This document shows, one piece after another, positions 3,801 to 21,145 of a DNA stretch of 22,427 nucleotides (its first letter is position 1; every line of letters begins with the position of its first letter). Location of the stretch: positions 1 through 22,427 of the forward strand of contig JAEORO010000092.1 in NCBI GenBank assembly GCA_016840855.1, read 5' to 3'. The translations under genes were made by a program, and so were the position numbers. Below the pieces are notes generated by a model. It was not told the DNA's origin. It saw only the letters and a list, made by a program, of their open reading frames with translations, and ran no database searches. Origin of the DNA: Candidatus Thorarchaeota archaeon (GTDB taxonomy: Archaea > Asgardarchaeota > Thorarchaeia > Thorarchaeales > Thorarchaeaceae).

Positions 3801-6362
3801 AGACACAATGAGGAATAATTCATCTGTGGGGTTTCCTGAAGCATCTACTGGATAAATATAAGTGAGGTCTTGATGTAGAAGTTCGTAAACAGGTGTATTG
3901 TTCACATTGGTTGTTGCGCTATCAAATACAAAAATTCGACCTGTCGGATCACTTGCATTCCAATAATTGATACCAGCAACAAATTGTTCTTTTCCGGTAG
4001 TCGAATTGTACATAGTCCTAATTCCAACTGGTTCCATATTGGAATACCCACTCATATCAACATCCAGAGAGTGTGAGAATGACAAATCCGTTGTGTAAAT
4101 GTCGATTCGTGTATTTCCTCTGATAACAGCGACATATCCAAATGAAACACCTTCTATAACAGAGAAACCTCTGACTCCTATTTCTTCTGGAAACTCCACA
4201 GATGTCCAGCTAAGATCTGAATCCATCTTGAGTATCGATTCTGGACTTGTTTCTGATACAAGAAATAGTTCTTCATTTCCATCTCCGTCATCATCAAAGA
4301 CTTCGATAAATGTAAAGCTCTTGTAGGGATATGGCACAACACCTTCTCCCATCAAGCTAAATGTGTCACCATGATACACGTGATATCGAAATAATGAGGC
4401 CTTTAAAACACCATCATAGTAGTAATCAAGAACTATGATGTCAAGGACATTATCTCCATCTAGCATAGCTGTATAAACTTCAAAATTATCGAATCTGTCA
4501 CCTGATGGTATGGTGATGTTTAAGGAGTCAAGTATTGTACCACTTGAAGAGTATTTTATGAGCGATAAGTCTTCAACACCCATGGGTCTCTCTATTGTGT
4601 AGATTACCTTATTGCCATCAGATAGATTTCCAATATCCGACTGATGGAACATCTTATGCACATAATCCGTTTCAGTCTTGTCTATTTTCCATACGAAATC
4701 CCCTGAAACTAAAAAGCTCAGAGGATGCGTTGAATTTCCTAAATCACCAATATTGAGATAGCTGTCTTGGACTGTAATATAATATTGATAGACACCGGGT
4801 TGAAGGTTCCCAATGAAAGCATAATATAGACCCTCTTGGTGAGATGCATACATTTCATCTTGGGGCTGAATCCATGATGAACTCCCAGGTAATCTCATCC
4901 ATAAATCGATATGCTCAATTGATGAAGATTCAACGACGTTGACTCTCACTGTAACATAATCGTCTAGGATTGTTGGGTGGATCGGATCAATTGGTGTCGG
5001 CAATAAAGCTGGAGGTGTAATATCGCTAGGAACTATGTAGACATCACTATCAATCCTGACCACAACATCATCTCTGCCATTACCAATTATATCAAAGCTG
5101 ATTATTTGATGTCCTCCAAGCCTAACATCGACAAGGTACTCGAGATTGGCGAAAATTCCATCAGCACCACGTATTATGCCAAGACCGCCACGAGTGGTTC
5201 CTATAGCCAAATCATCCATAGCATCCTGATCCATTGGTCCTACTCCAAGCTGTTTGGATGAGTAGGCGTAGATTCCATCTATTTCCCTTAATGGAGTGCC
5301 ATCATTTCCATTTATGAAAAATGCCTTCTCCTGAGTCCGACTTATAACGACTAAATCATCTTGTGGATTTCCACCAAAATCTCCTGTTTCTATGTATCTA
5401 GTTGTACTTGATAGCCCATCAACAAGTTGAGAATATACCACTCCTGGAGTATCACCCCAATATACAACAACATCGCCATCGCTTTCAATAGTAGCAATCT
5501 CTTCCAATCCTCCCATGTAGTTGAACTTCACCATATCCTGAATACTTGGAGTAAGGAGAATTGAATAAACCTGAGTTCCATCAGCATCTGCCACTGTCAG
5601 GTTTCTCTGACCTGCAGTTCCCATTGAATTTGAATATGCAATTGAATCCTGAGATGAGTTTGTAAATCTACCAATGATCGGTCCAAACCATGCATAGTCA
5701 ACTAAGAATGTACCAATTATGGTATTCGATCTCAAATCTAGTGTGAGGAAGTTGTCGCGATTGCCCACATCTTGAACTAACAAGTCAGGATAAGAATCTC
5801 CATTGAATATGCCAAATCCCTTAGGCGCTGCGTAGGTGAATGGCATTGGATACTCTGATACAATTACATCATCTATATCAACCATCAGAATATAGTAGGT
5901 AGGACTAACGAAGTTCCTAAGGAAAAACTCAGTATCACCATCCAAATCCACATCGTAGCCTGTGAGATATGCTCCGTTGTTCTTGCTGCCTGCTGGTAGA
6001 GCTATGTCCATTGTGACTTCACCAATCAAATCAACGAAATACAATCTACTCTCTTCTTCTATTACATACGCAAAACCGCGATGACCCTGAATCTCTCCAA
6101 TTGCAATCTGGATGTTCGTATCTGGAAGACTATAGTGATAAAGCGATTCAGTTTGAGCTAAATCATGTTGATCCTCCAATTGAAGAACGGCATTGGTTGT
6201 TGGTTCATAATTTAGTATTGTAGGTACAATGATTATGAATAGCAGAAAACCAATTATCAGAATCTTCAAGATGCCAATATCATCAGCATCCATGTTTTTA
6301 GATTTTGGACGGTATCGACTTACTCTATTATTCAAAGCATCAGTAGTTTTGGATGGATACAT
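816..6362 (-). CDS. Large cell-surface protein: signal anchor, two FG-GAP/VCBS-type beta-propeller regions, Ig-like repeats, C-terminal 7-TM region
   Basis: 1848-aa ORF with GGAGTGA/GAGG upstream of the ATG. Repeated DxD/NxDGxxD motifs (DVDLDGDTE, FNGDSYPDLLV, DIIGNGRDDVVV, DDDGDGNEELFL, DFDGDSEKDFLL). Six ~95-aa repeats with a V-x-D-x-Y-G-x-P-V-x-G-A-x-V-like motif. Seven hydrophobic segments in the last ~280 aa. Confidence 0.9.
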   Translation of the reverse strand: MYPSKTTDALNNRVSRYRPKSKNMDADDIGILKILIIGFLLFIIIVPTILNYEPTTNAVLQLEDQHDLAQTESLYHYSLPDTNIQIAIGEIQGHRGFAYVIEEESRLYFVDLIGEVTMDIALPAGSKNNGAYLTGYDVDLDGDTEFFLRNFVSPTYYILMVDIDDVIVSEYPMPFTYAAPKGFGIFNGDSYPDLLVQDVGNRDNFLTLDLRSNTIIGTFLVDYAWFGPIIGRFTNSSQDSIAYSNSMGTAGQRNLTVADADGTQVYSILLTPSIQDMVKFNYMGGLEEIATIESDGDVVVYWGDTPGVVYSQLVDGLSSTTRYIETGDFGGNPQDDLVVISRTQEKAFFINGNDGTPLREIDGIYAYSSKQLGVGPMDQDAMDDLAIGTTRGGLGIIRGADGIFANLEYLVDVRLGGHQIISFDIIGNGRDDVVVRIDSDVYIVPSDITPPALLPTPIDPIHPTILDDYVTVRVNVVESSSIEHIDLWMRLPGSSSWIQPQDEMYASHQEGLYYAFIGNLQPGVYQYYITVQDSYLNIGDLGNSTHPLSFLVSGDFVWKIDKTETDYVHKMFHQSDIGNLSDGNKVIYTIERPMGVEDLSLIKYSSSGTILDSLNITIPSGDRFDNFEVYTAMLDGDNVLDIIVLDYYYDGVLKASLFRYHVYHGDTFSLMGEGVVPYPYKSFTFIEVFDDDGDGNEELFLVSETSPESILKMDSDLSWTSVEFPEEIGVRGFSVIEGVSFGYVAVIRGNTRIDIYTTDLSFSHSLDVDMSGYSNMEPVGIRTMYNSTTGKEQFVAGINYWNASDPTGRIFVFDSATTNVNNTPVYELLHQDLTYIYPVDASGNPTDELFLIVSTGNLYLSQLGTTLTNMWSTTVTGAAPLSAIITDFDGDSEKDFLLFTDQDELLTQISFSGEVKWTVEVGEVYNPLLLGDIDLTPGEEIAAYPFAKVTSYTLGAVRNLDSNYLLDVLVEYSSSNIIQGDVFEVNATVSNIYGEIVEDASVYMSAHFMTPEGPALNTFGFYYADGWAKYHAVTDATWPIGVANLSITVDNKFYHPYEKTLVNAIIVQSDLHIQVQAPDLVNQGDAMNVTVWVNDNLGSPVDDATVSITLEGVALPAIQSGPFYVVNIPELQLEAGVHFISALAIHPHAIGIGVGEKAFEVQILTTSLIVSTDFPDTVEQDKRVVAWFNISDPYGFPVEGAIVTLKSGPKAFQLIESPVLGCYIFSHNITLGLGSHTFELNVQKPSIVGPPALEISFDVFGNLQPNVFFVPRVEGGSDFEVTIFVKDKYGPVFNWTSIQVEINGTRYTAFPSTTDLAEYSMWVPADFLLGPNLFNVHINATYANPWSGQFSIRAYSDAATSSEIHSSEGWVLTQGDQTMVVLQFMDWSHRPISGATVTFFVKALSYNLVESGLGVYSATISTAGWLPGEYEYVISVDHPDVETGDPIEGNVTVMGDLEFFVSYSPETPTQGQELTVVVSIIDGYGNPVPGLEVTIQLMDLPPMIAYPTDQIGEYFVEIPRIPTTMGYGDFTLTITAVGEYVGESIDTSTTIPVSPATPDFTMSTSTLSIGAGLSFVMSLIGMVIYFRIASSMKVDDKSLEGRKKSIKNMDRLYLLIVLGSAAGLAASYSTYTAGNYSLALILTVALLGCSVLLYGLWLYRDATAAVLVRGSLSRKRMVLGLWHLVFVPVVIFLILLYGVEIDWFKAYIIDQSFTIGMITVPTIMTTIFAAYLSSILVVVVNLYREVSKGLKKIVKMEDAGTPASVVEDEKTSMVSRFSSSVRIKFLMFLVVVGATTVMSMDFLASWELGIIVLLPVAFLVVIPFISSKIIQIFSKMSRGKIPSAPADS

Positions 6363-8369: not shown

Positions 8370-8897
8370 TTAATCCTCACATTCATTGATGGCGTTGCAA
8401 AAGCAATCACACGTATACTTACTTAGCCCTACCAGTGTGATTTCTTTTACTGAGCCCGGTTTCCGAGCATAGTGATTGATTCCTTCAACAATTGCTTTTG
8501 CGGATTGTTCCTCAGTAAGGCCTCCTACTCCTGCACCAATTGCGGGAAATGCAATGGAGTTTAGGTTATGATCAGAAGCAATGCTAAGTGCGGCTTGAAC
8601 TGATGATAATACCTTCCAATAAGTCGCTCTACCACCAGGTGGCATTCCAGCACAGTGAATGACATACTTTGATGGAAGAGCTCCGGCTGTTGTCATTACT
8701 GCTTCGCCGGGTCTTATTGGTCCCATTGACAAAGCTTCATCCTCTATTTGTTGTCCTCCCTTTGACTTGATTGCACCTGCAACTCCAGATCCCATCCAAA
8801 GGTCCGAATTAGCAGCATTAGCAATCACATCAACAGCAAGCTCCGTAATATCTCCAATATAGGTCTTGATTATTACATTACCTACTTTCTTCTCCAT
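8370..8897 (-). CDS. Macrodomain protein (AF1521/YmdB/MacroD type; ADP-ribose binding or hydrolase)
   Basis: Canonical motifs GDIT, NAAN, GSGVAGAI, VIH and SIAFPAIGAGVGG. Confidence 0.93.
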   Translation of the reverse strand: MEKKVGNVIIKTYIGDITELAVDVIANAANSDLWMGSGVAGAIKSKGGQQIEDEALSMGPIRPGEAVMTTAGALPSKYVIHCAGMPPGGRATYWKVLSSVQAALSIASDHNLNSIAFPAIGAGVGGLTEEQSAKAIVEGINHYARKPGSVKEITLVGLSKYTCDCFCNAINECED

Positions 8898-9004
8898 TTA
8901 CCACATCCCCACTTGGAGTATAACCTATATGGAACAATTTTCTTAATAGGTTGTCGTCCCGTAAGCTTTATGCCTTACAGTCCTGCATTTTCTGATGGCG
9001 AGTC

Positions 9005-9583
9005 TTGAACGATATCAATGATGACGAGTTGGCAACTCTAATGGAGAAATATGGCCAACCTCGTGAAAATGAATTCACTGCAGATTTTCTTGATTTTGAG
9101 TGTACACTCGTTAAACGAACAGAGTCAAAGGGCAGACTGCATGACATTACATGTTTCATTCAACAGGATGACGGCAATTACGTGGTAATTCAGAAACCAC
9201 AGTACGCAAGAACAGGAATCTACAGGGCTCCATCTGGCGGAGCTTCTATTGGTGAATCTCTCGAAGCTGCTGCTATCCGAGAGATGCGTGAAGAAACTGG
9301 TCTAACAATTCAACTGACACATTTTGTCTTAGACTTACGGCTCAATGTAGTTTGCAAAGATCGTACAATTCCTTGGAGGTCTTTTGTCTTTCTCGCGAAG
9401 CCAATAGATGGTGAGATGATACCAGTTGACACAAGAGAGATTTTTGATGTGACTACAATGACCCGTGGACAACTAGAAGGAGAAGTAGCAAGGCTTATGG
9501 ACGACTCAGGGTGGGGGGGATTTAAGTATCGGGCTTTCCTAACACGTGAATTCTTTAAACGTCTTGATGAGTTGAATATCTGA
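9005..9583 (+). CDS. Nudix hydrolase
   Basis: Nudix box GGASIGESLEAAAIREMREETGL. TTG start is uncertain. Confidence 0.9.
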   Translation: MNDINDDELATLMEKYGQPRENEFTADFLDFECTLVKRTESKGRLHDITCFIQQDDGNYVVIQKPQYARTGIYRAPSGGASIGESLEAAAIREMREETGLTIQLTHFVLDLRLNVVCKDRTIPWRSFVFLAKPIDGEMIPVDTREIFDVTTMTRGQLEGEVARLMDDSGWGGFKYRAFLTREFFKRLDELNI

Positions 9584-9617
9584 CCCTGTGTTACTCGATT
9601 CCATATTTTATTTTGTA

Positions 9618-9798
9618 CAAGAGGAATCCTAGAGCAGAGACACTCCGACAGATTGAGTTACCCCGAATAATGCAAAAAACTCAACACCTTTACTAATTAC
9701 CCCACAATTCCTGGCGGTGCGCTCTGCTCGTGTATTCTTTTTGAAACTTAGCAGAGTAAAGATAGCTGCTTCTCAATTTTGGAAACGGATTCCCTTTG
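9618..9798 (-). ncRNA. Putative structured RNA, element A (multi-stem junction, unknown family)
   Basis: Nested inverted repeats (+ coordinates): 9618-9629/9787-9798, 9632-9651/9711-9729, 9653-9659/9678-9684, 9741-9754/9766-9776. G-U pairs favour the - strand. Shares sequence blocks with element B. Confidence 0.55.
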
Positions 9799-9804
9799 AA
9801 ACTA

Positions 9805-10404
9805 TTATTTTGATAGCTTGGTGATTAACTCATTACAGAATTGCTCAAGAATTAGTCCTACTCTATCCTGGGTTTCAGTAGTACCATAGAGCTCTGTTAA
9901 TAGATTTAATAAAGCTAGATTATGTAGCATTGCAACTGAAAATTCATTTTTTGCATAGAATTCAGCAATTCTTTCATCCACTATTCCTTTCGCGTCATCG
10001 GTTCCAATTCGCTGAATTGCTTTCTTTCTGACTTCATACATACATGCTTCAAACTCGCTATTCTGAAGAAACTGTCTGATTGGTCCAATTAAGAAGTTCG
10101 CTGAAAGTTCATCGGTGAGATTGTGACTGCCAAGTTCGCGTACGCTATCATTGAATTGAACAAGGATAGGTTCAATGTCAATGGGAACTTTTCTTGCTAC
10201 TTCAATTAGAAATGCTCGGAACTCCTTTCGTCGAATAAGATGAAGATGCTGTTTGAATTCCTCTTCGAATGCTTTTATGACGGGACCAATACCCTGTATT
10301 GATAGTCGGTGTTTTTTATCACGACTGTATAGAACACCTTCTTCTTCAGAGTAGAACTGTAGGTGGACCAGATATTTCACCATGAGTTCTAATTGATCTG
10401 TCAT
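9805..10404 (-). CDS. Hypothetical protein, predicted mostly alpha-helical
   Basis: 199-aa ORF with AGGTGA upstream. No family motif recognised. Confidence 0.8.
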   Translation of the reverse strand: MTDQLELMVKYLVHLQFYSEEEGVLYSRDKKHRLSIQGIGPVIKAFEEEFKQHLHLIRRKEFRAFLIEVARKVPIDIEPILVQFNDSVRELGSHNLTDELSANFLIGPIRQFLQNSEFEACMYEVRKKAIQRIGTDDAKGIVDERIAEFYAKNEFSVAMLHNLALLNLLTELYGTTETQDRVGLILEQFCNELITKLSK

Positions 10405-10463
10405 CTTTGAACATCTAGCTCACCTTTAACAATTCAACATATATTCCTAATTGGGAGTTTCCT

Positions 10464-10510
10464 AAAAAGAGAAAGAGAGATGGGAGGGGTAGATTCCCTA
10501 CCCATTCTCT
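10464..10510 (-). terminator. Hairpin plus U-tract after transcarbamylase 1
   Basis: On the - strand, agagaatgggtagggaatctacccctcccatctctct is followed by ttctcttttt, starting 2 nt after the stop. Confidence 0.6.
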
Positions 10511-10512
10511 AA

Positions 10513-11559
10513 TTATCGCATTGTTAAAGCCATGACAGCTTTCTGAGCGTGCAACCTATTCTCTGCTTGGTCAAAGGCAATGGACTGCGGTCCATCGATG
10601 ACAGAGTTGGTGACTTCAAAACCTCTATCACAGGGCAAACAGTGCATGTATGCTGCCTTGGGACCTGCAATCTTCATCTTGTCATCATCGCAGATCCAAT
10701 GTTTGTTTTTGTCAAACACTGCTTGAGATTTCTCGAGTTCCGGTTTACTGTTGAATGGGGGAATGAACTCCTTACATGTCCAAGCCTTAGGATAGACAAC
10801 GTGAGCTCCCTCAAAAGCTTCATCCATATCGTTCACAATGTCAAAGCTTGCCTCATTCTCTTCTGCGAACAATCTGCATTTGTCTAAAATTCGGTCATCA
10901 AGCTCCATACCCTTTGGATGTGCTAGGACAGTGTCGCATCCCATCTTGGTGGCTGCTATTATTGCACTCTGCGGCACAGCAAGAGGTTTGTGAACTGAGG
11001 GACTATATGCCCATGACATCACGAACTTGACACCCTTGAATGTGCCAAATTTTTCCTTCACAGTCATGATGTCCGCCAATCCTTGGCACGGATGGTAAAT
11101 GTCATCTTCCATGTTGATGATTGGAATATGACTCCAGTGTGCGAAGTTATTGATAATCTCATTCGCGCGACCATAAATCCAGCCAACGGGGTCTCCATAA
11201 CACCTAATCGCTATACCATGACCCATTCTCGCAAGAACACGTGCTACATCTGAAACGCGTTCGGTAGAATAGGCTTTCTCATCTCCTTCAAGAGCTGGAG
11301 CATATATCTTGCCAGGGTCGAGGAAATGTGCATGTCCACCAAGTTGGGTCATCCCTGCCTCGAATGAGTTACGAGTTCTTAGGCTTTGGTTATAGAAAAT
11401 CATGAACAGTGTTTTTGCATCGAGAAGTTTGTGAGGTTCACCCGTCGCAAACTTGCGCTTTAAATCAAGTGCAACCTCTAGGAGTGTCTCGATCTCCTCC
11501 TTCGTGTAATCAAGCAGGGTTATGAAGTCCCTGCCACGAAAAGTCTCTGTTTTAACCAT
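10513..11559 (-). CDS. Ornithine/aspartate carbamoyltransferase superfamily protein, YgeW/AOTCase-like (paralog 1)
   Basis: SLRTR carbamoyl-phosphate loop, HPCQ, HCLP, QAENRLH. Has SWAYSPSVHKPLAVPQ (YgeW-like). YPKAW replaces the DxxxSMG motif of true ArgF. Confidence 0.9.
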   Translation of the reverse strand: MVKTETFRGRDFITLLDYTKEEIETLLEVALDLKRKFATGEPHKLLDAKTLFMIFYNQSLRTRNSFEAGMTQLGGHAHFLDPGKIYAPALEGDEKAYSTERVSDVARVLARMGHGIAIRCYGDPVGWIYGRANEIINNFAHWSHIPIINMEDDIYHPCQGLADIMTVKEKFGTFKGVKFVMSWAYSPSVHKPLAVPQSAIIAATKMGCDTVLAHPKGMELDDRILDKCRLFAEENEASFDIVNDMDEAFEGAHVVYPKAWTCKEFIPPFNSKPELEKSQAVFDKNKHWICDDDKMKIAGPKAAYMHCLPCDRGFEVTNSVIDGPQSIAFDQAENRLHAQKAVMALTMR

Positions 11560-11611
11560 GGTTGGTCACAACCTCTTTACTCGCATTGCAGCTTATAGAA
11601 AAAGCTTACCC

Positions 11612-11780
11612 ATTGTTGAAAACATAGAATTCTTATCAAATAGTTCATCTGGTTAGACGAGGGTTTTTGTTATTCAGTTTGAGCCAGATGTAACGCTTGC
11701 GTCAGTTAATCTAGCTATTCAACGATTCTATCTCAAAAAAAGTGAATCAATTAACATCTTTCAGTCTAATCATTGAAAGA
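11612..11780 (+). promoter_or_regulatory. Structured spacer/leader (element C) between the divergent transcarbamylase 1 and SnoaL genes
   Basis: Stems at 11612-11620/11718-11726, 11643-11654/11682-11694 and 11757-11765/11772-11780, each with G-U pairs favouring the + strand. Confidence 0.35.
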
Positions 11781-11831
11781 CTAAACTTCATCAAGGGGTA
11801 AGTCAATCTTTTGGATAGAGAGGTGCTGAAT

Positions 11832-12272
11832 ATGGAATCTATCACATCCCAAATTGAAGAGATTGTTAACAGAGAAACTGAAGCTTGGGATAAACAGGAT
11901 GTTGACTTATTGATGACAGTCTTTCACCCTGATATGGTCTGGCCTTGGCCACCTCATGCAAAGGCTCACGACCCGATGGACTGGGTTATTGAGTGGGGGC
12001 GTTATGATGCTAAGAGATGGCGGAGAGGATGGCAAGACCTCTTTGACACGCACGATCTTGTTCATAATATTCGGACCATCAAAAAGATAGAGATATCTAA
12101 AGAGGGAGATGGTGCGTTTGCAGTTGTTGATATTGATACTCTCTGGCGTAACAAAGACGGAAATGACACCCATTGGATGGGTCGAACATGTAAAATTTAT
12201 TCAAAGATTATAAATCAATGGAAGATGACAGCGCAGGTTGGTGTTCTCGATTATCATGATGTCATGATATAG
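11832..12272 (+). CDS. SnoaL-like / NTF2-family protein
   Basis: N-terminal helix then AWDKQDVDLLMTVFHPD; beta-rich end with GRTCKIYSKIINQWKM. GAGGTG RBS precedes ATG 11832. Confidence 0.85.
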   Translation: MESITSQIEEIVNRETEAWDKQDVDLLMTVFHPDMVWPWPPHAKAHDPMDWVIEWGRYDAKRWRRGWQDLFDTHDLVHNIRTIKKIEISKEGDGAFAVVDIDTLWRNKDGNDTHWMGRTCKIYSKIINQWKMTAQVGVLDYHDVMI

Positions 12273-12359
12273 GCGGCTTTGGTTTAGTAATCTCTCCTAA
12301 TGCTTAAAGGGAGCTGAGCACATAATATCTGAATTGAATTATTAACAATTGGAGAGAAA

Positions 12360-14951
12360 ATGATGAAGAGAAAGGTTGTGAACCTTGCCTTCTCATTCAT
12401 TGGTCCGATCGCATTAATCATTATTTTGACAATGCCAATAGGTCCATTGACCGGGGGGCTAGGCATCATTGAACCGTGGGGCGGGATATTCGATGTTGGA
12501 CGTGGGATTCAATATCCGAATTCTCAGACGGTTGTCATTCCTGAAATGATAGGTGGTGCAGATGTCATAATTGATGAATGGGGCATTCCCCATATCTATG
12601 GCGACACAGTTGAAGATGTCTTTGCAGCGCTAGGGTATATGCATGCCCGAGACCGTCTATTTCAAATGGTGATGCAGACGTATCTTGCTGCTGGACGTAT
12701 AAGTGAGGTCGTTGGTAGTATTGCAGTAGATACTGACAAATATCAGCGAACCATTGGTCTAGCGAAATCAGCTGAAGAAGCTTATCAATGGTATCTTGAT
12801 AATTCTGACACAAATGAAGATGTGAGTTATACGCTGCGTGCTGTTAATGCGCATGTTGATGGAATCAATGCATTCATCAACTCCATGACTAGTGAAACCA
12901 CACCCATAGAGTTCAAGATACTTGGGTTCACTCCAGATCCTTGGAAGCCAGTCTATTCATTCATCTGGGCTAAATATATGACTTGGACTCTCTCAGGTGG
13001 CATTGAAGATCTCAGGAATGAATACATTAGAATTCAACTCGATAATGATACAATGTATAGTGAGCTCATTCCAGATGTTTTTCCAGATACTGTGCCAATA
13101 ATCCCTGAACAGTACAATCTCAGTCTTGTAGACTATCCTGACGCACCAGGTGGATATCCTGCAAGCGTGACACCTCCGCCTCCAGTACTTGCGGAAGATG
13201 CGCCAACCAATCTTATTTCCTTAGAGAAAATCAATGAGGTCTTGGAAGCAACATCTGACTTGCTTGAATTCTTTGGAGATAGAGCATTTGTTGGTAGTAA
13301 CAGCTGGGCTGTAAATGGCAGCAAGACCGCAGATGGTCAAGCTATGCTTGCTAATGATCCTCACCTTACTCTTCAGGCACCATCTCTTTGGTATGAGGTC
13401 CAACTAGTTGTTGCTGGGGAGTTGAACGTACAAGGTGGATCTCTACCTGGAACCCCTGGAATATTGATTGGTCATACTGAGCATATTGCATGGGGGATGA
13501 CTAATGTGGGTGCTGATCTCCTCGACATCTTTGTTGAAGAGCTAAATCCAGCAAACCCAAATCAATATCGGTACAATGGTGAATGGGTGGATTTTGAAAT
13601 TATAGATGAACCAATCAAGGTAAGCGGTGGATCTGATGTTGCATTTAATGTCAGCTGGTCGGTTCATGGACCATGTATTGACTCCATCACTAGTACCTAC
13701 AATCTTGATGACCAAGAGTCTTTTCCAAACCTCGCAATGAACTGGACCGGTTCTGGTGTGACTCATGAGATATTGACACTTGGGATACTTAATAGAGCAA
13801 ATAATCTCCAAGACTACTTTGATGCTATGTATTGGTGGGACTCACCACCTCACAATTTCATCTATGCTGATGATGCAGGTAATATAGCTCTTACAGTCGC
13901 TGGACGGTTCCCACTCCGAGCAGGATACTCGGGTAATTTCCCAGTGAGAGCTGTCAATGATTCTGTTGGCATGGTGAGTAATGTACCATACGCGTTCAAT
14001 CCACGTTCTGTTAATCCATCACAATGTTTCCTCCAATCTGCGAATCAGAAGTCAATTGATCCTGCAACTTATCCCTATACGATATTAGGTCATCAATCAC
14101 CTGATTACAGAGGTGAACGCATACATATGTGGTTGGATGCAGCCAGTGACCTTACTGCGGAAGATATGATGATACTACAAGCTGATATTGTTGATCTCAC
14201 TGCTGAGAAAATGCTGCCATATGTGCTAACTGCATGGTCAACAGCTGGTGATGGTAATGCGACTATTAATGGAATTATTGGTTTGTTGAACACTTGGAAC
14301 TATGAAATGGATGTCGATATACCAGCCCCAACAATCTGGGTGTACCTTCTTGAAAATATGAGATACGAAGTCTTCGATGAGCTACGGTCTAAGAGTCTTT
14401 CTGCTTCGATAGCAGCAGTTCCTGTCCTTGAATGGGTAGTGACAAACTCAATTTCCTACTACATCGATGACCACACAACAGTTGGAACTGTTGAGAGTCT
14501 AAATGAGATCTTGATTCGTGCACTCCATAGAACTGCGTCAAATCTGTATTCAATTAGTGATAATCCAGATGATTGGAATTATGGACTCCATCATACTATT
14601 GAGATTGAGCATATAGCTGGTTTCACCTATATTGGTGGCGGAGAACATAGAGGAAGTGGATATACAGTCAATGTTGGTAGCGGAGCTGTCGTACACCACG
14701 GACCTTCACGTAGAATGATTGTCAGCTATACACCGATTCCAGAGTATTATGTAATCTATCCCGGAGGACAGAGTCAAGTCATGTTCAGCGAGCACTGGGA
14801 TGACCTGTTTGTTCTTTGGTATGATTATGACCCAATAACAGGTCACTATGACTATATACTAGAATACAACTATGCTACTGCTGCGGCATTTGAAGCTGCT
14901 AATGATGGGACAATGATTGAGATGGTCATCGCCTTAATACCAAGGAGGTAA
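12360..14951 (+). CDS. Penicillin acylase family protein (Ntn hydrolase, peptidase S45), membrane-anchored or secreted
   Basis: N-terminal hydrophobic segment; DEWGIPHIYG, GYMHARDRLFQM, autocleavage site GSNSWAV, LANDPHL, SANQ, YPGGQS. Confidence 0.93.
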   Translation: MMKRKVVNLAFSFIGPIALIIILTMPIGPLTGGLGIIEPWGGIFDVGRGIQYPNSQTVVIPEMIGGADVIIDEWGIPHIYGDTVEDVFAALGYMHARDRLFQMVMQTYLAAGRISEVVGSIAVDTDKYQRTIGLAKSAEEAYQWYLDNSDTNEDVSYTLRAVNAHVDGINAFINSMTSETTPIEFKILGFTPDPWKPVYSFIWAKYMTWTLSGGIEDLRNEYIRIQLDNDTMYSELIPDVFPDTVPIIPEQYNLSLVDYPDAPGGYPASVTPPPPVLAEDAPTNLISLEKINEVLEATSDLLEFFGDRAFVGSNSWAVNGSKTADGQAMLANDPHLTLQAPSLWYEVQLVVAGELNVQGGSLPGTPGILIGHTEHIAWGMTNVGADLLDIFVEELNPANPNQYRYNGEWVDFEIIDEPIKVSGGSDVAFNVSWSVHGPCIDSITSTYNLDDQESFPNLAMNWTGSGVTHEILTLGILNRANNLQDYFDAMYWWDSPPHNFIYADDAGNIALTVAGRFPLRAGYSGNFPVRAVNDSVGMVSNVPYAFNPRSVNPSQCFLQSANQKSIDPATYPYTILGHQSPDYRGERIHMWLDAASDLTAEDMMILQADIVDLTAEKMLPYVLTAWSTAGDGNATINGIIGLLNTWNYEMDVDIPAPTIWVYLLENMRYEVFDELRSKSLSASIAAVPVLEWVVTNSISYYIDDHTTVGTVESLNEILIRALHRTASNLYSISDNPDDWNYGLHHTIEIEHIAGFTYIGGGEHRGSGYTVNVGSGAVVHHGPSRRMIVSYTPIPEYYVIYPGGQSQVMFSEHWDDLFVLWYDYDPITGHYDYILEYNYATAAAFEAANDGTMIEMVIALIPRR

Positions 14952-14955
14952 ATCA

Positions 14956-15381
14956 ATGAGGAAAATCGATGATATCATGCCTAATATAGGATTCATCCCA
15001 GCACTGATAGTAACCATCGTAATTGGAGCTGCGCTTCAATTAAGTGGTGCTTGGATTGCAATGTTGATAGCTGGTGCACTAGGTTCATTGTTCGTAAGAA
15101 GGCATCGTATTGCATTTTTGGTGGGCTTTCTAGGAATAATGTTTGCCTGGGCAATACTCTTTGTTTATCTCATTTTGACAGCGCAAGCGATGGCAATTGC
15201 TGAATTCTTCATCGGTCTACTGGGATTAAGTGGAATGGGTTGGTTGGTCATTGTAATTAGTTGTCTTCTTGGAGGATTGTTAGGTGGTTTCGGTTCGCTC
15301 TTTGGGCGGTCGCTCGTAGAACTCATTGATGAACTGATTCCAAATAACACCCAAGATAGAAAAGAGCCATTAAATGAGTAG
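14956..15381 (+). CDS. Small Gly-rich multi-pass membrane protein
   Basis: About 4 TM helices with GxxxG motifs. Starts 4 nt after the acylase stop, with GGAGG RBS, so probably co-transcribed. Confidence 0.8.
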   Translation: MRKIDDIMPNIGFIPALIVTIVIGAALQLSGAWIAMLIAGALGSLFVRRHRIAFLVGFLGIMFAWAILFVYLILTAQAMAIAEFFIGLLGLSGMGWLVIVISCLLGGLLGGFGSLFGRSLVELIDELIPNNTQDRKEPLNE

Positions 15382-15401
15382 AATCTTTGAAAGCTATGGT
15401 C

Positions 15402-15956
15402 CTAGCCATGGCTTTCATTCTTTCCTTTTATGATAAACCCTAAACCCCCAGCTGTGAATCCTCCAATAATCACCAATGTTAATACAACAAAGCTGTTGAT
15501 CGCATCAGTTCTGTCCAAGGTTCCATTGATTGTCATTATGTAGATTGAATCATTGTAGTATACAATATACCAGACTCCTTTGGAAGGAACCTCAAAAGTC
15601 CATCTGAGACTTAGCACATTATTTCTTGCAAAAGCTGCTACAAATGTTTGACCTTCCACAAAGAGGGAATAATTAACGTTGTCAAGTATATAGAATTGTA
15701 TCCCCTCTAGACTCCAGTCGTCGTATTTCTTTTCGTCTCCAAAAAAGAGAGAACCATCACATACGACCTCAAAACTTCCTAATAGCATGTCCCCCTTTTG
15801 ACAGTCAATATCGTATGCTCTCCAAGAAACGCCCTCTACCAAAATATTGTGGGACTCTTTTATTTCAATCTGAGAGCTAATATCACCATCCACTGCATCA
15901 ACTCCTATCACCAAAATGATGAATAATAGAGGCAGTAGACATATTTTCTTGATCAA
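15402..15956 (-). CDS. Type I membrane protein with a GOLD/emp24-like beta-sandwich
   Basis: Signal peptide, beta-rich domain (GDMLLGSFEV..IQFYILD..WTFEVPSKGVWYIVYYN), C-terminal TM and a short Lys-containing tail. Confidence 0.7.
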   Translation of the reverse strand: MIKKICLLPLLFIILVIGVDAVDGDISSQIEIKESHNILVEGVSWRAYDIDCQKGDMLLGSFEVVCDGSLFFGDEKKYDDWSLEGIQFYILDNVNYSLFVEGQTFVAAFARNNVLSLRWTFEVPSKGVWYIVYYNDSIYIMTINGTLDRTDAINSFVVLTLVIIGGFTAGGLGFIIKGKNESHG

Positions 15957-16052
15957 GTCTTGCTACTCCATATTTAATGACCAATACAACTGGCATATGC
16001 GCTTTTATTCTATATTAATTTCCAAATAAGATTAAGCCACTGCGAAAGAGAT

Positions 16053-16113
16053 TTAACTATGGTTAATATAGGAAAGGGGGATGAGCTAAGGAAGGTCTTT
16101 TATCTCCTTTCCT
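16053..16113 (+). promoter_or_regulatory. Palindrome plus strong inverted repeat upstream of fprA
   Basis: TTAAC-tatg-GTTAA (16053-16066) overlaps TATA-like sequence. AGGAAAGGGGGAT/ATCTCCTTTCCT at 16070-16082/16102-16113. Confidence 0.4.
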
Positions 16114-16146
16114 GCGCTCAAAATGACAAGACTTTGGGTGAAGGAA

Positions 16147-17331
16147 ATGTATAGAGAAGTGGCCAAAGGCGTTTATTATATTGGCGTTGATGATCATCAT
16201 ACAGAGCTATTTGAAAATCTATGGAAGATACCCTTTGGAGTTTCGTATAACAGCTATCTCATAGTGGATGAGAAAGTCGCACTTATTGAAACCGTCAAGG
16301 GACCATGGTCTGAGCAATGGCAAGAAAATATCCGTGAAATTATTGATCCTGCAAAGATAGACTACATCATACTCAATCATATGGAACCAGACCATACTAG
16401 CTCTCTTCCTGATATTGCGAAGATCGCTACGAACGCCACGATGATTTATACAAACAAAGCTTCTGACATGCAGAAGTCATTCTATGACATTCCCTTAAAA
16501 GAAAAGACAGTCGAAGATTTAGAGGAGATCTCCCTCGGAACGAAGACTCTCAAGTTTATACATGCACCTTTCCTTCACTGGCCGGAAACAATGATGACCT
16601 ACATTATAGAGGATGAGATTCTCTTCTCATGTGATGCCTTTGGAGCTTTTGGCGCATTGAATGAAAAGGTGTTTGATGACGAGATTGACCTTAGAATGGT
16701 TGAGTCAGAAAGCAGACGATACCTTTCTGCAATCATTACTTCCTACTTCAAGTTCGTACAAAGAGGAATTGAAAAGGTAAAAGATCTTGGAATTGGCATC
16801 AAGGTGATTGCTCCGAGTCATGGTCCAATCTATAGGAAAGACCCGATGTGGATCGTAGATAGGTACAATGAGTGGACACGACCAGAGCTTGAGAAATATG
16901 CGACAATTGTGTATGGAACAATGTATGGCTACAATCATCGCTTAGCTATCAAGCTGAAGAAGGAACTAATTGATCTTGGCGTTGAGGTTAAGCTGCACAA
17001 TATCTCATATACTGAGATGAGTAGAGTTCTTGTTGATGCAATAAGGGCTGGAGTTCTGATTGTTGGTACTCCAACCTATGATGCATTTCCATTCCCAAAG
17101 ATTTGGGCATTCGTGAATGAAGTCCAAGGGAAAAGATTCCCTGTAAAAACAGTGGCTCTCTTTGGAACCTATGGATGGGGTGGTGGAGGAGTCAAGAAAC
17201 TTCAGAATATGTTTGAGGAGATGAAGTTTGAGATTCTAGAACCAATCATTCGTGTAAAAGCACGACCCTCTGATGAAGAGAGTGAACAGATCAGACTTCT
17301 CGCCAAAGCGATTGCAAAAAGACTGCAGTAA
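16147..17331 (+). CDS. fprA: Flavodiiron protein (FprA, O2/NO reductase)
   Basis: Diiron ligand motifs HMEPDH, LHWPE, CDAFG and SHG. Flavodoxin domain with GTMYGYN and GTYGWGGG. GGGTGA RBS favours ATG 16147 over 16123. Confidence 0.95.
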   Translation: MYREVAKGVYYIGVDDHHTELFENLWKIPFGVSYNSYLIVDEKVALIETVKGPWSEQWQENIREIIDPAKIDYIILNHMEPDHTSSLPDIAKIATNATMIYTNKASDMQKSFYDIPLKEKTVEDLEEISLGTKTLKFIHAPFLHWPETMMTYIIEDEILFSCDAFGAFGALNEKVFDDEIDLRMVESESRRYLSAIITSYFKFVQRGIEKVKDLGIGIKVIAPSHGPIYRKDPMWIVDRYNEWTRPELEKYATIVYGTMYGYNHRLAIKLKKELIDLGVEVKLHNISYTEMSRVLVDAIRAGVLIVGTPTYDAFPFPKIWAFVNEVQGKRFPVKTVALFGTYGWGGGGVKKLQNMFEEMKFEILEPIIRVKARPSDEESEQIRLLAKAIAKRLQ

Positions 17332-17453
17332 GAATAATTGAAAGTTAGTCTGGTCTAACCGCATTCTTATTAACGACATACCCCTGAACTACGTATTCTC
17401 GCATTAGCGTAGAAATGATAGGAGAGTATAATCTTCGTAGTGAGTTGAGAGAT

Positions 17454-18041
17454 ATGAATCTTAAGGGAACAAAAACCGAGAAGAATCTGCTAACTTCCTT
17501 TGCTGGCGAATCTCAAGCACGCAATAGATATACAATTGCTGCAAAGACTGCCAAAAAAGAAGGCTATCCTCATATTGCAGCAATCTTTGAAGAAACTGCG
17601 GGTCATGAGCTAGAACATGCTAAGAGATTCTTCACTACTCTTAAGGAAGGTGGAGCCACAGAAGCTATCAAGGTAGAGTGGGATTTCCCAACAAGTGGCG
17701 GCTATGAAAATACTGAGTCACTTCTCAGACACGCAGCAGCTGGTGAGAAGTTTGAATTCACAGAAATGTATCCAGGTTATGCTGACATAGCAGAAAAAGA
17801 GGGCTTCAAAAGCATCGCTCATATGTGGCGAATGATCGCGAAGGCTGAAACTTGGCATCATGAACGATACTTAGCTTTGGCTGACCAGATTAAGGATGGT
17901 AGCATTTTCAAGAAGAATGAGAAAGTCAAGTGGCGCTGCGATAATTGTGGTTATATTCACGAAGGTACCAGTCCACCAGACAAATGCCCTGCTTGTCAAC
18001 ATGATAAGGCTTACTTTATGCTCCATTTCTCAGAATACTAG
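17454..18041 (+). CDS. rbr: Rubrerythrin
   Basis: LKGTKTEKNL..FAGESQARNRY, ELEH, ETWH, and a rubredoxin-like CDNC..CPAC domain. ATG 17454 gives the family-typical N-terminus. Confidence 0.96.
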   Translation: MNLKGTKTEKNLLTSFAGESQARNRYTIAAKTAKKEGYPHIAAIFEETAGHELEHAKRFFTTLKEGGATEAIKVEWDFPTSGGYENTESLLRHAAAGEKFEFTEMYPGYADIAEKEGFKSIAHMWRMIAKAETWHHERYLALADQIKDGSIFKKNEKVKWRCDNCGYIHEGTSPPDKCPACQHDKAYFMLHFSEY

Positions 18042-18050
18042 TTCTACTAT

Positions 18051-18090
18051 TACCTTGGTCACCAATAGGCCAAGGTACTTTCTATTTCTT
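18051..18090 (+). terminator. Hairpin plus U-rich tract after rbr
   Basis: TACCTTGGTC-accaata-GGCCAAGGTA (10 bp, one G-U on +) followed by ctttctatttctt. Confidence 0.6.
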
Positions 18091-18118
18091 ACTTGATAGA
18101 CACTTTGTAGCAGTCCAT

Positions 18119-18472
18119 TTACCTTAACCCATAATCGATATTCTGAGCGATTATTTCAGTTATTTTCTTGGCATCGTTCATGCGGCCATTATACCGTACA
18201 GTAACTGGTTTCTCGAATGTTGTAAAATCTACACGTAGATTTACTCCAAAAGGTTGTGTGGGCTCTAATGCCACATTATCAATTAGATTCAAGTCAATAG
18301 CATGTGCTGTCCTCTGTTTGGAACTAAATAGTCCACCTCCGATAGCAAAGACCAAACGTTTCTGTGTAAGTATAAGTCTCCCATCTGTGAACCCACCAGA
18401 ATCATGAAGAAAGCTAAACTCGCCATTCGCTAAAACTTGCTCATCTGGCTCTCTCTCATCAAAGGTTACCAT
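18119..18472 (-). CDS. Small PH/GRAM-like domain protein
   Basis: GRLILTQKRLVF..GLF..IDLNLIDNV pattern typical of prokaryotic PH-fold domains, with a C-terminal helix. Confidence 0.75.
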   Translation of the reverse strand: MVTFDEREPDEQVLANGEFSFLHDSGGFTDGRLILTQKRLVFAIGGGLFSSKQRTAHAIDLNLIDNVALEPTQPFGVNLRVDFTTFEKPVTVRYNGRMNDAKKITEIIAQNIDYGLR

Positions 18473-18691
18473 GACATTCCCTCAAACAAGATTTTCTGAC
18501 GCTCGATTTATCACTTTCGAATCTCTTTGCTTTTTTTCACACAATTCTCCAAAACCCTAAGGCATGGAGATGATGACGAAGATTATTGTATCCATAATGC
18601 AGGCTCGAGGATTTAAGATGTTAAAGTTGCTTTCTCCTATTGTTATCTAATGTGCGATAGACTCAAATCTAAGATGAATTGAGATTGCCAC

Positions 18692-19732
18692 GTGACTACA
18701 ATGAAGAGTCTGTATGGACGCGATTTAATAACAACACAAGAATGGAGTGTTGAAGAGCTTGAGAAGACCTTGGATCTCTCATTTGAGTTCAAGGCTAACC
18801 GATACGACCATCCTCTGAATAACTGCCTTGAAAGAAGGACATTCTTCATGTTCTTCTACAACCCAAGTGTCAGAACTCGCCAGTCTTTCGAAGCTGCAGC
18901 CACTGAACTTGGGGGACATGCTCAATTCCTGGAGCCAAAAACGATGAGGCTCAAGACTGGAAAGTCAGCAGGTGAAACCGTCGAAGACGCGGCTCAGGTA
19001 ATGAGTCGTTATGCGGTAGGACTTGGAATTCGAATTCTAGAAACTGGCATTGAATATTATGGCCAAGGAGATGAGCTCTTGAGACAATATGCAGACAATG
19101 CAAGCATACCAATTATTTCAATGGCTCATGACAGGTTCCACCCCTGTCAGGGTCTTGCAGATGTTATGGGTTATCGGCAACATGCTGGCAAGAACCTTAA
19201 AGGCAAGAAAATCTTACAGGTCTGGGGAAAAGGCGCACTTGTCCGCTCGTGGTGTAGTGTCCAAGAGAGTATATTGATCAATTCACGGCTTGGAATGGAT
19301 GTCACACTTGCTCATCCTCCGGGTTATGATTTAGACCCAGAGGTCATCAAGTGGTGTGAGGAAAATGCTGCAGCGGCTGATAGTACATTTGAGATTGTTC
19401 ATGATCTTGAGGACGGCTACAAGAATGCTGACATAGTCTATTCACGCAACTGGATGACTGACGGCTTCTATGATGACATGATGAAAAGAGGTGTGGATGA
19501 AGCTAAGAAGAAAGAGATAGAGATTGCTGCAAAGTATGATGATTGGATAACAACAAGAGAGTGGATGTCACATACTAATAATGCCTATTTCACTCATTGC
19601 GGTCCAGTTGATAGAAATGCGGAAGTCACAGATGAGGTCTGTGACAGCCCTAGGTCTATTGTTTACGATGTTGCTGAGAACAGACTCCATGTTCAGAAAG
19701 CAATCATGGCATTAACTATGGGTAAGCAGTAA
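18692..19732 (+). CDS. Ornithine/aspartate carbamoyltransferase superfamily protein, YgeW/AOTCase-like (paralog 2)
   Basis: SVRTR, HPCQ, GMDVTLAHPPGYDL, YSRNW (no DxxxSMG), HCGP, AENRLH. Start is GTG 18692 or ATG 18701. Confidence 0.9.
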   Translation: MTTMKSLYGRDLITTQEWSVEELEKTLDLSFEFKANRYDHPLNNCLERRTFFMFFYNPSVRTRQSFEAAATELGGHAQFLEPKTMRLKTGKSAGETVEDAAQVMSRYAVGLGIRILETGIEYYGQGDELLRQYADNASIPIISMAHDRFHPCQGLADVMGYRQHAGKNLKGKKILQVWGKGALVRSWCSVQESILINSRLGMDVTLAHPPGYDLDPEVIKWCEENAAAADSTFEIVHDLEDGYKNADIVYSRNWMTDGFYDDMMKRGVDEAKKKEIEIAAKYDDWITTREWMSHTNNAYFTHCGPVDRNAEVTDEVCDSPRSIVYDVAENRLHVQKAIMALTMGKQ

Positions 19733-19740
19733 ACCATGTC

Positions 19741-19770
19741 AAGCCCCCATATCTATTGGGGGCTTTCTCT
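19741..19770 (+). terminator. Hairpin after transcarbamylase 2
   Basis: AAGCCCCCA-tatctat-TGGGGGCTT is a perfect 9-bp stem, followed by tctct. Confidence 0.6.
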
Positions 19771-19785
19771 ACTCAGTGATGAGTA

Positions 19786-20034
19786 GGAGTCATCCAATTT
19801 TTGAAGCAGTATCGCTCAGAATGCATTTTTTCGAGCTTACTGCTCGTTTCTAATAGGCGGAAGAATATTATTCGAGTTGTGCAAGGTAGGAATATTACTC
19901 GTCAGAGCTGGGAGGATAAAGTCGACTAGAAGGATGCGGGACTATTCAGGTTGTTGCTTGCACAGTAACTATGGCAAATCAACTCCAAATAATGTGGTGC
20001 CCATCGACGCTCGGACTTGAAACAGGAATACTCC
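19786..20034 (+). ncRNA. Putative structured RNA, element B (related to element A)
   Basis: Closing helix 19786-19795/20025-20034; hairpin 19803-19850 (AGCAGTA/TACTGCT, GCTC/GAGC); long arm 19875-19970 (TGTGCAAG/CTTGCACA, GAATA/TATTC, CTCGT/GCGGG). G-U pairs favour the + strand. Confidence 0.5.
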
Positions 20035-20056
20035 GTGGGTGCCAAACGGCGCCCAC
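20035..20056 (+). terminator. GC-rich hairpin at the 3' side of element B, just past the ABC ATPase stop
   Basis: GTGGGTGCC-aaac-GGCGCCCAC is fully paired only on + (U-G wobble) and is followed by a T-rich stretch. Confidence 0.5.
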
Positions 20057-20059
20057 ACT

Positions 20060-21145
20060 TCATTCTTTCTCAATCTCACTCCATCGATGACAACGGATAA
20101 AGTGGTCTTGTTTTACCTCTCTATATTCTGGTACTTCTTCCTTACATCTATCAATTACATACTGGCACCGAGGATGAAATGCACAGCCTTTTGGTATAGC
20201 CGTAAGGTCCGGAGGATCTCCTGGAATTCCCCTCAGTTTTGGTTTCTTTCCAGCACGCATCTGCATCATCGCGATTGTTGGAAAACTCGACATTAGACCC
20301 ATTGTGTAAGGATGCTGTGGGTTATGGAAGATATCAACAGCATTGGCATATTCGACAATCTTACCCGCATACATTATGGCAACTCTATCAGCCATTTCTG
20401 CAACAACACCTGCATCATGACTAATGAGAAGCAGTGACACATCAAACTCATCTCGTATCATCTTTAAGACATTCATTATCTGCCGTTGTATAGTAACATC
20501 CAAAGCTGAAGTCGGTTCATCAGCAATCACCAAGTACGGTCCAGCAATGAGTGCCATAGCAATCAGTATTCTTTGCGACTCTCCCCCGCTGAAGCTTCCA
20601 GGGTCTAGTACAAATCGCATGTTAGCATCAGCCAGTTGAACAAGCCCGAGATACTCGAGTACTTTCCTCTTGAGTTCAATAAGTCTAATGTTTTCATCGT
20701 GTATTTCAACTGGTTCTGCTGTCTGGTGCCCAATACTGTGCTGCGGATTAAGGGCATGACCAAGTCCCTGTGGAATAAGTGATAATTCACGTCCTCTAAT
20801 TGCGGTGAGTTCTTCTTGAGGTAGGGAGGATATCTCCTTTCCTCTGAAGAATACTTTCCCTCTAACGCCAGGTAAGTCGGCAGCACCAGGAACCCCTTTC
20901 TCGAACGCTCGTCGCAATGATGGATCATTTGATGTTCCTGCACTAAACCGTGCAACCTTTTCAAATAATCCCATAATGGCTAGTGCCATACTACTCTTCC
21001 CTGAGCCACTTTCTCCCAGAAGTCCAACACATTCACCCTCTCTAACTTCAAGAGAAACATCATCAACCGCTCTGACCAGTCCCTTTTTTGACGAGTAGTA
21101 AGCCCGTAAGTTTTCTAATATAAGTAATGGATCACCCTTGGTCAT
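20060..21145 (-). CDS. dppD: Oligopeptide/dipeptide ABC transporter ATP-binding subunit (DppD/OppD type)
   Basis: Walker A GESGSGKS, signature FSGGESQR, Walker B VIADEPTSALD, ISHD, HPYT, and C-terminal GCAFHPRC..C..C. Confidence 0.92.
   Translation of the reverse strand: MTKGDPLLILENLRAYYSSKKGLVRAVDDVSLEVREGECVGLLGESGSGKSSMALAIMGLFEKVARFSAGTSNDPSLRRAFEKGVPGAADLPGVRGKVFFRGKEISSLPQEELTAIRGRELSLIPQGLGHALNPQHSIGHQTAEPVEIHDENIRLIELKRKVLEYLGLVQLADANMRFVLDPGSFSGGESQRILIAMALIAGPYLVIADEPTSALDVTIQRQIMNVLKMIRDEFDVSLLLISHDAGVVAEMADRVAIMYAGKIVEYANAVDIFHNPQHPYTMGLMSSFPTIAMMQMRAGKKPKLRGIPGDPPDLTAIPKGCAFHPRCQYVIDRCKEEVPEYREVKQDHFIRCHRWSEIEKE

Follow-up and report, generated by a model that had tools for sequence, protein, structure and literature searches.

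Two spacers in an uncultured archaeal genome hold separate candidate structured RNAs and not one new RNA family

Do two A+T-rich spacers of one archaeal contig, each close to a transcarbamylase gene, hold related copies of a single structured RNA? The question was raised by a sequence-only reading of a 22,427-nucleotide (nt) stretch of Candidatus Thorarchaeota DNA (contig JAEORO010000092.1, C23 of the metagenome-assembled genome GCA_016840855.1; the whole stretch is called the window here), which had joined an element A (9618-9790, minus strand) and an element B (19783-20034, plus strand) into one candidate family of non-coding RNA. The strings quoted for the two elements are present on those strands, and both spacers contain conserved, structured, non-coding sequence for which Rfam has no match, as had been proposed. 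They do not form a single family. What we have found are two new candidates for archaeal RNAs, of modest weight and each limited to one or two genera. The reading that we prefer, and to which we give a probability of about 0.68, is that each spacer has its own lineage-restricted structured non-coding RNA candidate, with no homology between them: in the first spacer RNA A, most likely a plus-strand gene for a small RNA of some 100 nt, and in the second RNA B, a structured RNA of about 250 nt. The colinear short blocks of two AT-rich spacers were misleading, and it was the comparison with relatives that gave the real signal. Homologues with pairing changes exist in related genomes for each element separately.

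Comparison with Rfam points to no known family for either element. Rfam 15 gave no match at the gathering score in the window, nothing below E 5 on either spacer, and no match at E <= 1 on eight diverged homologue loci. A survey of the literature by titles and abstract openings turned up nothing published on small or structured RNAs in this group of archaea.

When the DNA of the A spacer was searched against 40 related genomes, strong matches were obtained in 11 genomes of the same genus, and these extended only from about position 9741 down to the stop codon of the NUDIX hydrolase gene (Table 1). The alignment has three zones: a core of 95-101 nt with invariant ends (GAGCAGAG...CTCTGCTC, window 9632-9729), a variable stretch of about 23-25 nt, and a nearly invariant block of 25 nt that abuts the NUDIX stop. 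R1, a covariance model built from 12 A cores, detects a single copy per genome in 26 of the 28 genus members (27 of 28 with a match at E 0.0015) and no copy in the 59 genomes searched from 16 other genera; the E-values of this model, and of models R2 and R3 below, are rough, following a short calibration. RNA A lies just after the NUDIX gene in 27 of the 28 genomes. Each of the 26 genus loci has the same macro/NUDIX pair ahead of the RNA, as do both genomes of a second genus, g24. Carbamoyltransferase 1 is found within 1.5 kb in 7 of the 26 loci and the open reading frame (ORF) of 199 amino acids in 11. Judged by its position, RNA A is tied to the NUDIX gene rather than to a transcarbamylase. 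The statement that both elements lie downstream of a transcarbamylase holds for B; at A the 199-amino-acid ORF (9805-10404, minus strand) intervenes.

Of the 86 genomes of the family, 76 have a NUDIX orthologue, and a scan downstream of these orthologues brought up an RNA A copy in G001 (27.4 bits) and another in G069, a member of genus g24 (18.1 bits, E 0.0019), at the same place in both g24 genomes. A blastn search with the g24 copy found g24 only (2/2). The iterated model R3, run on 151 genomes sampled from the phylum under stricter filters with which it missed the known g24 copy, found the genus only (8/8), together with two noise-level matches (E 0.011 and 0.075) that have no NUDIX gene nearby. 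RNA A was found in none of the 16 NUDIX-downstream loci of 14 other genera; by eye, 13 of these loci share one convergent gene soon after NUDIX, and L075, L085 and L086 differ.

Three side observations concern this locus. The convergent gene of those 13 loci (L071-L074, L076, L078-L084 and L087) is conserved (…ATTGTAATGTTGAGC…CTTTGTACCT…GTCACTCC… on the shown strand) and comes after NUDIX with a GC-rich hairpin in between; in most other genera of the family it stands where genera g1 and g24 have RNA A. In G011 (locus L069, G011:C104:4198-4660) the RNA A core is cleanly absent and the post-NUDIX TTCCATATT block runs directly into CAGAAAGAGTATTATC, a second conserved spacer word that lies 25-40 nt downstream of RNA A in several species (L069 was compared with L028, L031, L035, L041 and L046). 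The macro-domain gene (ADP-ribose binding/deacetylase-like) and the NUDIX gene, divergent at 8370-9583 of the window, are kept as a pair in 26 of 26 genus loci examined, which suggests a fixed ADP-ribose-handling pair beside RNA A.

The predicted fold of RNA A has P1 as its closing helix, a further helix P2 and a hairpin P3, and would leave unpaired a 26-nt C/U-rich strand (..ACUCCUUACCCCAC..) and the C-rich loop of P3. In the genus the helices are GAGCAGAG/CUCUGCUC (P1), CCGACAG/CUGGCGG (P2) and UUGAGUU/AACUCAA (P3). In g24 they have been rewritten to GAGUGGCG/CGCCACUC, GUCAGC/GCUGAC and UUGUU/AACAA, with compensatory changes in all three, and the C-rich strand, the CCCCGAA loop and the upstream GTG..ACACT..ATAT block have been kept. 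The unpaired strand contains ..CACUUUAACUCCUUACCCCACGAUUC.., with ACCUCCUUACCCC in one species and CCCCCCUCCCAC in g24. Across 26 sequences 93% of the alignment cells in the helices are paired; five pairs have changed on both sides and none of 500 shuffles reaches the covariation score. With 15 sequences that include one g24 copy, both sides have changed in 8 of 21 pairs, no shuffle out of 500 reaches any of five measures, and controls in which the helices were slid along the alignment are paired in 35-44% of cells. As is asked of structured RNAs generally, the helices of RNA A are kept by compensatory changes beyond those of the controls.

The nearly invariant block behind the NUDIX stop codon may be the promoter of RNA A, with a TATA-like box and a transcription factor B recognition element (BRE). 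Its end lies 23-25 nt upstream of P1 in 25 of 26 loci, with variable letters between, and 23-25 nt is the expected spacing of an archaeal TATA box and its start site. Elsewhere in the genome tRNA genes are preceded by A/T-rich boxes at a distance of about 30 nt, and the RNase P RNA gene by a similar word, CCATATTT, at about 31 nt. There is no other copy of the block within three substitutions in the genome, and it is not a promoter word common to other loci. Transcription of RNA A would start at or near the first G of P1 and would stop at the T-run after P1.

What might such an RNA do? The genome uses GGAGG as its Shine-Dalgarno site, with a 7.8-fold enrichment of this sequence some -14 to -8 nt from ATG starts. 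Given these sites and the unpaired C-rich strands, pairing of RNA A with ribosome-binding sites is a reasonable proposal: its pyrimidine-rich strands would pair with the G-rich ribosome-binding sites of target mRNAs, and RNA A would be a trans-acting regulator. Anti-Shine-Dalgarno action is only a proposal.

The second spacer appears to hold a structured RNA of about 250 nt that is fixed between the gene for carbamoyltransferase 2 and a convergent ABC ATPase gene, and that would end in a hairpin of 9 base pairs (bp) with a U-rich stretch behind it. In 11 genomes of the genus about 290 nt of the spacer match at 70-77% identity, with a further partial match at a contig end, and the same two genes flank the spacer in all 12 complete loci. 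R2, a model of the 5' and central part of B, detects B in 15 of 28 genus genomes and in none of the 59 genomes outside the genus. Orthologues of carbamoyltransferase 2 (84-97% identical) are present in about 24 of the 28. In eight genomes with no R2 match the same spacer has GCCGGGAGAAA, AGACUUGG and the terminal hairpin followed by CACACCUUAUUCUU, and one of the eight, G041, also retains AGAUGGAUGCG and CCCAUCAAGCUCAGACUUGG; a diverged B is likely to be genus-wide, to judge from these blocks. A separate stretch, 12289-12389 on the plus strand, is the sole non-self R2 match below E 0.01 in the window. This match is weak (18 bits) and we judged it probably due to chance; it comprises a UCUCUCC/GGAGAGA hairpin around the ribosome-binding site at the start of a penicillin-amidase gene.

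In an alignment of 15 sequences six helices of B are paired in 89.5-100% of cells. The helices that we kept are those that hold up in per-sequence folds, in pair counts and in the pattern of the terminal hairpin. One-sided changes through G.U pairs are frequent: a G.U or U.G pair is found in the terminal hairpin of all but one of the 15 sequences, the exception having A-U, and U.G occurs in the long-range helix in 9 and 11 of the 15 sequences and at the base of the variable hairpin in 10. Variants of the terminal hairpin (GGGC/GCUC, GGGU/GCCC, GAGC/GCUC and GGAC/GUCC) are connected by G.U intermediates (G-C, G.U, A-U). On these pairs the G.U pattern of B fits the plus strand only. Two-sided changes occur in 8 of 42 pairs, a count matched by 1 of 500 shuffles. 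Five of the eight fall in the poorly paired AGCAG/CUGCU hairpin, and the structural support for B therefore consists of the one-sided G.U changes, the folds at 19950-19983 and the terminal hairpin.

A number of points weigh against our reading of the two RNAs. The alignments of RNA A were fitted to the model and their sequences are kin, with the consequence that the shuffle controls overstate the support. Most helix positions of RNA A are invariant within the genus; the strongest covariation comes from one other genus, g24, which amounts to two very similar sequences, one of them in the counted alignment. The C-rich strand matches just 4-5 nt of the Shine-Dalgarno complement. For B, the best score of R2 on the presumed diverged copies is 10.5 bits (E 0.036), and homology there comes from blocks recognised by eye together with the terminal hairpin. 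RNAalifold performs poorly on B as a whole (covariation term -0.16), an all-against-all column scan of the 15 close sequences returns an excess of competing helices, and G-rich segments can pair with pyrimidine stretches in many other ways; the structure of B is partly settled. A T-rich box before B lies just 11-18 nt from the first conserved helix strand, a poor fit to a promoter of its own. For both RNAs we infer transcription, ends and strand from sequence. A search of sequencing runs listed no RNA run that contains the stretch. Six metatranscriptomes of the same studies contain next to no words of it, and the contigs of four of these, compared with 9000-20500 at 80% likeness, match coding genes alone, in short and diverged pieces; none of this says anything on expression.

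The alternative that survives best is that one or both elements are structured 3' untranslated regions (UTRs) in the mRNA of the preceding gene, which is NUDIX at A and carbamoyltransferase 2 at B, acting in cis on stability or termination, or released by processing. We regard it as unlikely but as a serious competitor. Both elements are on the same strand as a gene and directly after it, with constant synteny. B begins about 80 nt past the stop codon, has no well-placed TATA-like box and finishes in a terminator-like hairpin and U-rich stretch; in G011 the A core is missing though the block behind the NUDIX stop has stayed. In the case of A, the post-stop block is conserved at a fixed distance while the 23-25 nt before P1 vary, which is the pattern of a promoter and not of a folded UTR. 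In the case of B, the stop codon is separated from the body by two hairpins and a T-rich stretch, which would fit an earlier termination. These post-stop hairpins may be either the end of the gene transcript or part of RNA B, and RNA B itself may be an independent RNA or the structured 3' UTR of the carbamoyltransferase mRNA.

The strand of RNA A has to be argued separately. Its helices are nearly self-symmetric and both strands fold, so that the minus strand could be the one transcribed, with a G-rich, Shine-Dalgarno-like strand (GUGGGGUAAGGAGU) in place of the C-rich one. On the plus strand the helices contain 22 G.U cells and 14 A.C cells, and the latter would be G.U on the minus strand; nine of the 14 are at one terminal pair, 27/63, which has changed in a whole clade. 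In addition, one pair of L034 agrees better with the minus strand, the alignment follows a plus-strand model to which it was fitted, and the T-runs expected behind P1 are absent in 11 of 26 loci. Outside pair 27/63, however, there are 22 G.U cells against 5 A.C cells. A run of at least four T within 30 nt downstream occurs in 15 of 26 loci on the plus strand and in 6 on the minus strand, and a run of at least five in 9 against 3. Sequence upstream on the minus strand cannot be aligned and so offers no promoter-like block at a fixed distance, whereas the plus side has its conserved block with 23-25 nt spacing. Because of the G.U excess, the fixed block spacing and the T-runs, we consider with moderate confidence that RNA A is most likely on the plus strand, the same as the NUDIX gene, and we think a minus-strand RNA A improbable. 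The use of G-U pairs to orient each element with its transcarbamylase thus succeeded for B; for A the opposite strand, and a link to NUDIX, is more likely.

Could A and B nevertheless be two diverged copies of one RNA family, or of a degenerate miniature inverted-repeat transposable element (MITE), each 3' of a transcarbamylase gene? Colinear short blocks do exist, the window has 8 copies of GAAGCAG where 3.3 are expected, and the best non-self match of R1 in the window is the 5' hairpin of B (19799-19850; 9.4 bits and E 1.3 with filters off, with nothing on the rest of B). The likeness itself is at chance level. Local alignment of A (minus) with B (plus) scores 47, compared with 39.3 +/- 5.9 for dinucleotide shuffles, of which 54 in 500 are as high, and 69 of 1000 GC-matched genomic segments equal it. 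The 5' parts alone nominally beat controls, since only 29 in 1000 shuffles and 17 in 1000 genomic segments reach their score, for a region picked after the match had been seen. By blastn the opposite strand matches better (25/37, E 0.022, versus 15/19, E 1.1), and MAFFT did not recover the proposed alignment of A with B. For the conserved cores, controls score as high in 391 and 260 of 500. Single-sequence folding energies are ordinary (z -2.05 for A, equalled by 6 of 200 shuffles; z -0.83 for B, equalled by 41 of 200).

Searches beyond the pair agree. With nhmmer (--max, E <= 10, the whole 3.36-Mb genome) the profile of each element finds its own locus only, and R2 has no match to A at 9584-9800. 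The blocks said to be shared (TCCAA, the AGCAG/CUGCU hairpin and AAGAAUA) lie on the A side outside the core, where 12 orthologues cannot be aligned and the closest relative, L039, retains just the T-run/GAATACAC end. The AGCAG/CUGCU hairpin on the B side pairs in just 55.7% of cells across 15 orthologues, against 90-100% for other helices. A duplicated element or degenerate MITE is also at odds with the single copy of each in 3.36 Mb and in each relative genome. A follows NUDIX in 26 of 26 loci, with transcarbamylase 1 near in only 7, and the two transcarbamylases are just ~36% identical paralogues. Since profiles and models give no cross-match and the cores are no more alike than controls, A and B are by these comparisons unrelated and form no joint family; common descent of the two seems to us very improbable.

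Least credible of all is that a small protein gene or DNA-level binding sites, and not RNA structure, account for the conservation: single sequences do have open stretches of 20-100 codons, and the minus strand of A in the window has GGAG then GUG, but neither a conserved ORF nor 3-periodicity was found in the orthologue alignments of A or B, the longest open frames change frame and strand among orthologues, the three codon positions have similar numbers of variable columns (31/27/30 in A, 81/75/70 in B), loop indels are not multiples of three, and the helices are kept through compensatory changes.

The two candidate RNAs belong to a 3.36-Mb assembly of 259 contigs with 42% G+C. The genome is archaeal, since it has matches elsewhere to RNaseP_arch (163.9 bits, above the cut-off) and to Archaea_SRP (full-length, 87.7 bits); no small-subunit rRNA was found in the assembly. 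Both elements are placed between convergent genes, and neither lies upstream of, and on the same strand as, a gene that it could regulate in the manner of a riboswitch or 5' leader. The transcarbamylases had been called YgeW-like. Their scores with YgeW models are only 129-156 bits, versus cut-offs of 453-500, and those with NF003384 are 293 and 254 bits; the profiles point instead to N-acetylornithine/ornithine carbamoyltransferase-like enzymes. Carbamoyltransferase-1-like paralogues at G022:C224:908-1936 and G018:C52:18900-19928 have one in-frame TAG each, which could be a pseudogene mutation, a sequencing error or a recoded stop. Further upstream in the window, at 816-6362 on the minus strand, is an ORF of 1848 amino acids whose only matches, to Ig-like (Big_1, Invasin_D3) and FG-GAP domains, are below threshold; it is likely to encode a giant surface protein.

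Table 1. Coordinates of the candidate RNAs, their parts and the neighbouring genes in the window
Feature	Position	Strand	Remarks
RNA A core, 98 nt	9632..9729	+	R1 112.9 bits on +, 15.9 on -
P1 of RNA A	9632-9639/9722-9729	+	closing helix
P2 of RNA A	9645-9651/9711-9717	+	helix
P3 of RNA A	9653-9659/9678-9684	+	hairpin; variable loop 9660-9677
J of RNA A	9685-9710	+	conserved C-rich unpaired strand, 26 nt
Conserved block right after NUDIX stop	9584..9608	+	GTGTTACTCGATTCCATATT at 9588-9607; nearly invariant; putative BRE/TATA-like promoter
T5 run	9738..9742	+	9 nt past P1; candidate archaeal termination signal of RNA A
5' part of A in the sequence-only reading (TCCAA, GAAGCAG..CUGCU, AAGAAUA)	9741..9790	-	outside the conserved RNA
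RNA B conserved body, ~250 nt	~19810..20056	+	R2 139.9 bits at 19810-19947; 5' end uncertain
Long-range helix of B	19812-19819/19908-19915	+	91.6% of cells paired
AUUCU/AGAAU helix of B			96% of cells paired
Base of variable hairpin of B	19873-19876/19898-19901	+	100% of cells paired
Covarying hairpin of B	19950-19957/19974-19983	+	per-sequence folds give one hairpin, with different letters between species
Terminal 9-bp hairpin of B	20035-20043/20048-20056	+	100% of cells paired; by pattern in 22/23 spacers
AGCAG/CUGCU hairpin of B in the sequence-only reading	19805..19844	+	55.7% of cells paired, 15 orthologues
Two hairpins after carbamoyltransferase-2 stop	19742..19786	+	from alignments; T-rich stretch follows
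First post-stop hairpin	19742-19748/19758-19764	+	GC-rich
Second post-stop hairpin	19769-19775/19780-19786	+	CTACTCA/TGAGTAG; 94.7% of cells paired
Macro-domain gene	8370-8897	-	Pfam Macro; divergent from NUDIX gene
NUDIX hydrolase gene	9005..9583	+	Pfam NUDIX; constant upstream neighbour of RNA A
199-amino-acid ORF	9805-10404	-	no family; between element A and carbamoyltransferase 1
Carbamoyltransferase 1	10513-11559	-	
Carbamoyltransferase 2	18692..19732	+	Pfam, NCBIfam; constant upstream neighbour of RNA B
ABC ATPase gene	20060-21145	-	convergent with carbamoyltransferase 2

Few structured non-coding RNAs are, to our knowledge, known from uncultured archaea. RNA A has a gene-like anatomy and a strict link to the macro/NUDIX pair, and can be tested as a candidate regulator; among RNAs of no known family, RNA B stands out for its length and its good conservation. 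Because both are restricted to one or two genera and their expression is putative, their value is that of good candidates rather than of a discovery. A bolder interpretation would make RNA A the first described promoter-bearing, covariation-supported, trans-acting regulatory RNA family in this uncultured archaeal class, anti-Shine-Dalgarno-like and functionally coupled to a macro/NUDIX pair that handles ADP-ribose or nucleotide caps, and RNA B a new large structured archaeal RNA (~250 nt) with a function of its own and not a UTR. We hold this version to be doubtful.

How do the two candidates compare with known systems? Element A is bounded by terminal inverted repeats, GAGCAGAG..CTCTGCTC, as are MITEs and the ends of insertion sequences, but it is a single copy at one syntenic site in 27 genomes, and neither target duplications nor second copies were seen. 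Like hairpin-plus-U terminators, B has a GC-rich hairpin of 9 bp with UUYAUUCUU behind it, where the convergent ABC gene stops; unlike them it is conserved for about 220 nt further upstream with more helices, and a terminator accounts for the last 30 nt only. The candidates fall in the size range of H/ACA and C/D guide RNAs, and a hairpin with an internal loop closed by a lower stem is a further likeness. No ACA/ANA box is kept after P1, however, where the next 5 nt differ among 26 sequences (GTGTA, ATATT, AAACT, CAATC and others), and conserved C (RUGAUGA) or D (CUGA) boxes are absent from the alignments of A and B. Orthologues of B have not kept the GUGAUGAG that it carries in the window.

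Closer parallels are found among regulatory RNAs. Archaeal regulatory small RNAs are known from transcriptomics of Methanosarcina, Haloferax and Sulfolobus, and most have no covariation-supported structure. Those RNAs were found by expression, whereas the present candidates are known from structure and conservation; like them, the candidates are intergenic, lineage-restricted and about 100-300 nt long, with a putative archaeal-type promoter box and a candidate oligo-T end. RsaE/RoxS of the Firmicutes are trans-acting small RNAs whose C-rich unpaired motifs pair with Shine-Dalgarno sites. RNA A differs from them in being archaeal and in having no relation to them in sequence or in Rfam, and the likeness is one of description, with pairing just proposed. 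The features in common are these: RNA A is short and appears to be structured, its conserved pyrimidine- and C-rich strands (CUCCUUACCCCAC and the CCCC loop) lie outside the helices, and the genome in which it is found has GGAGG sites.

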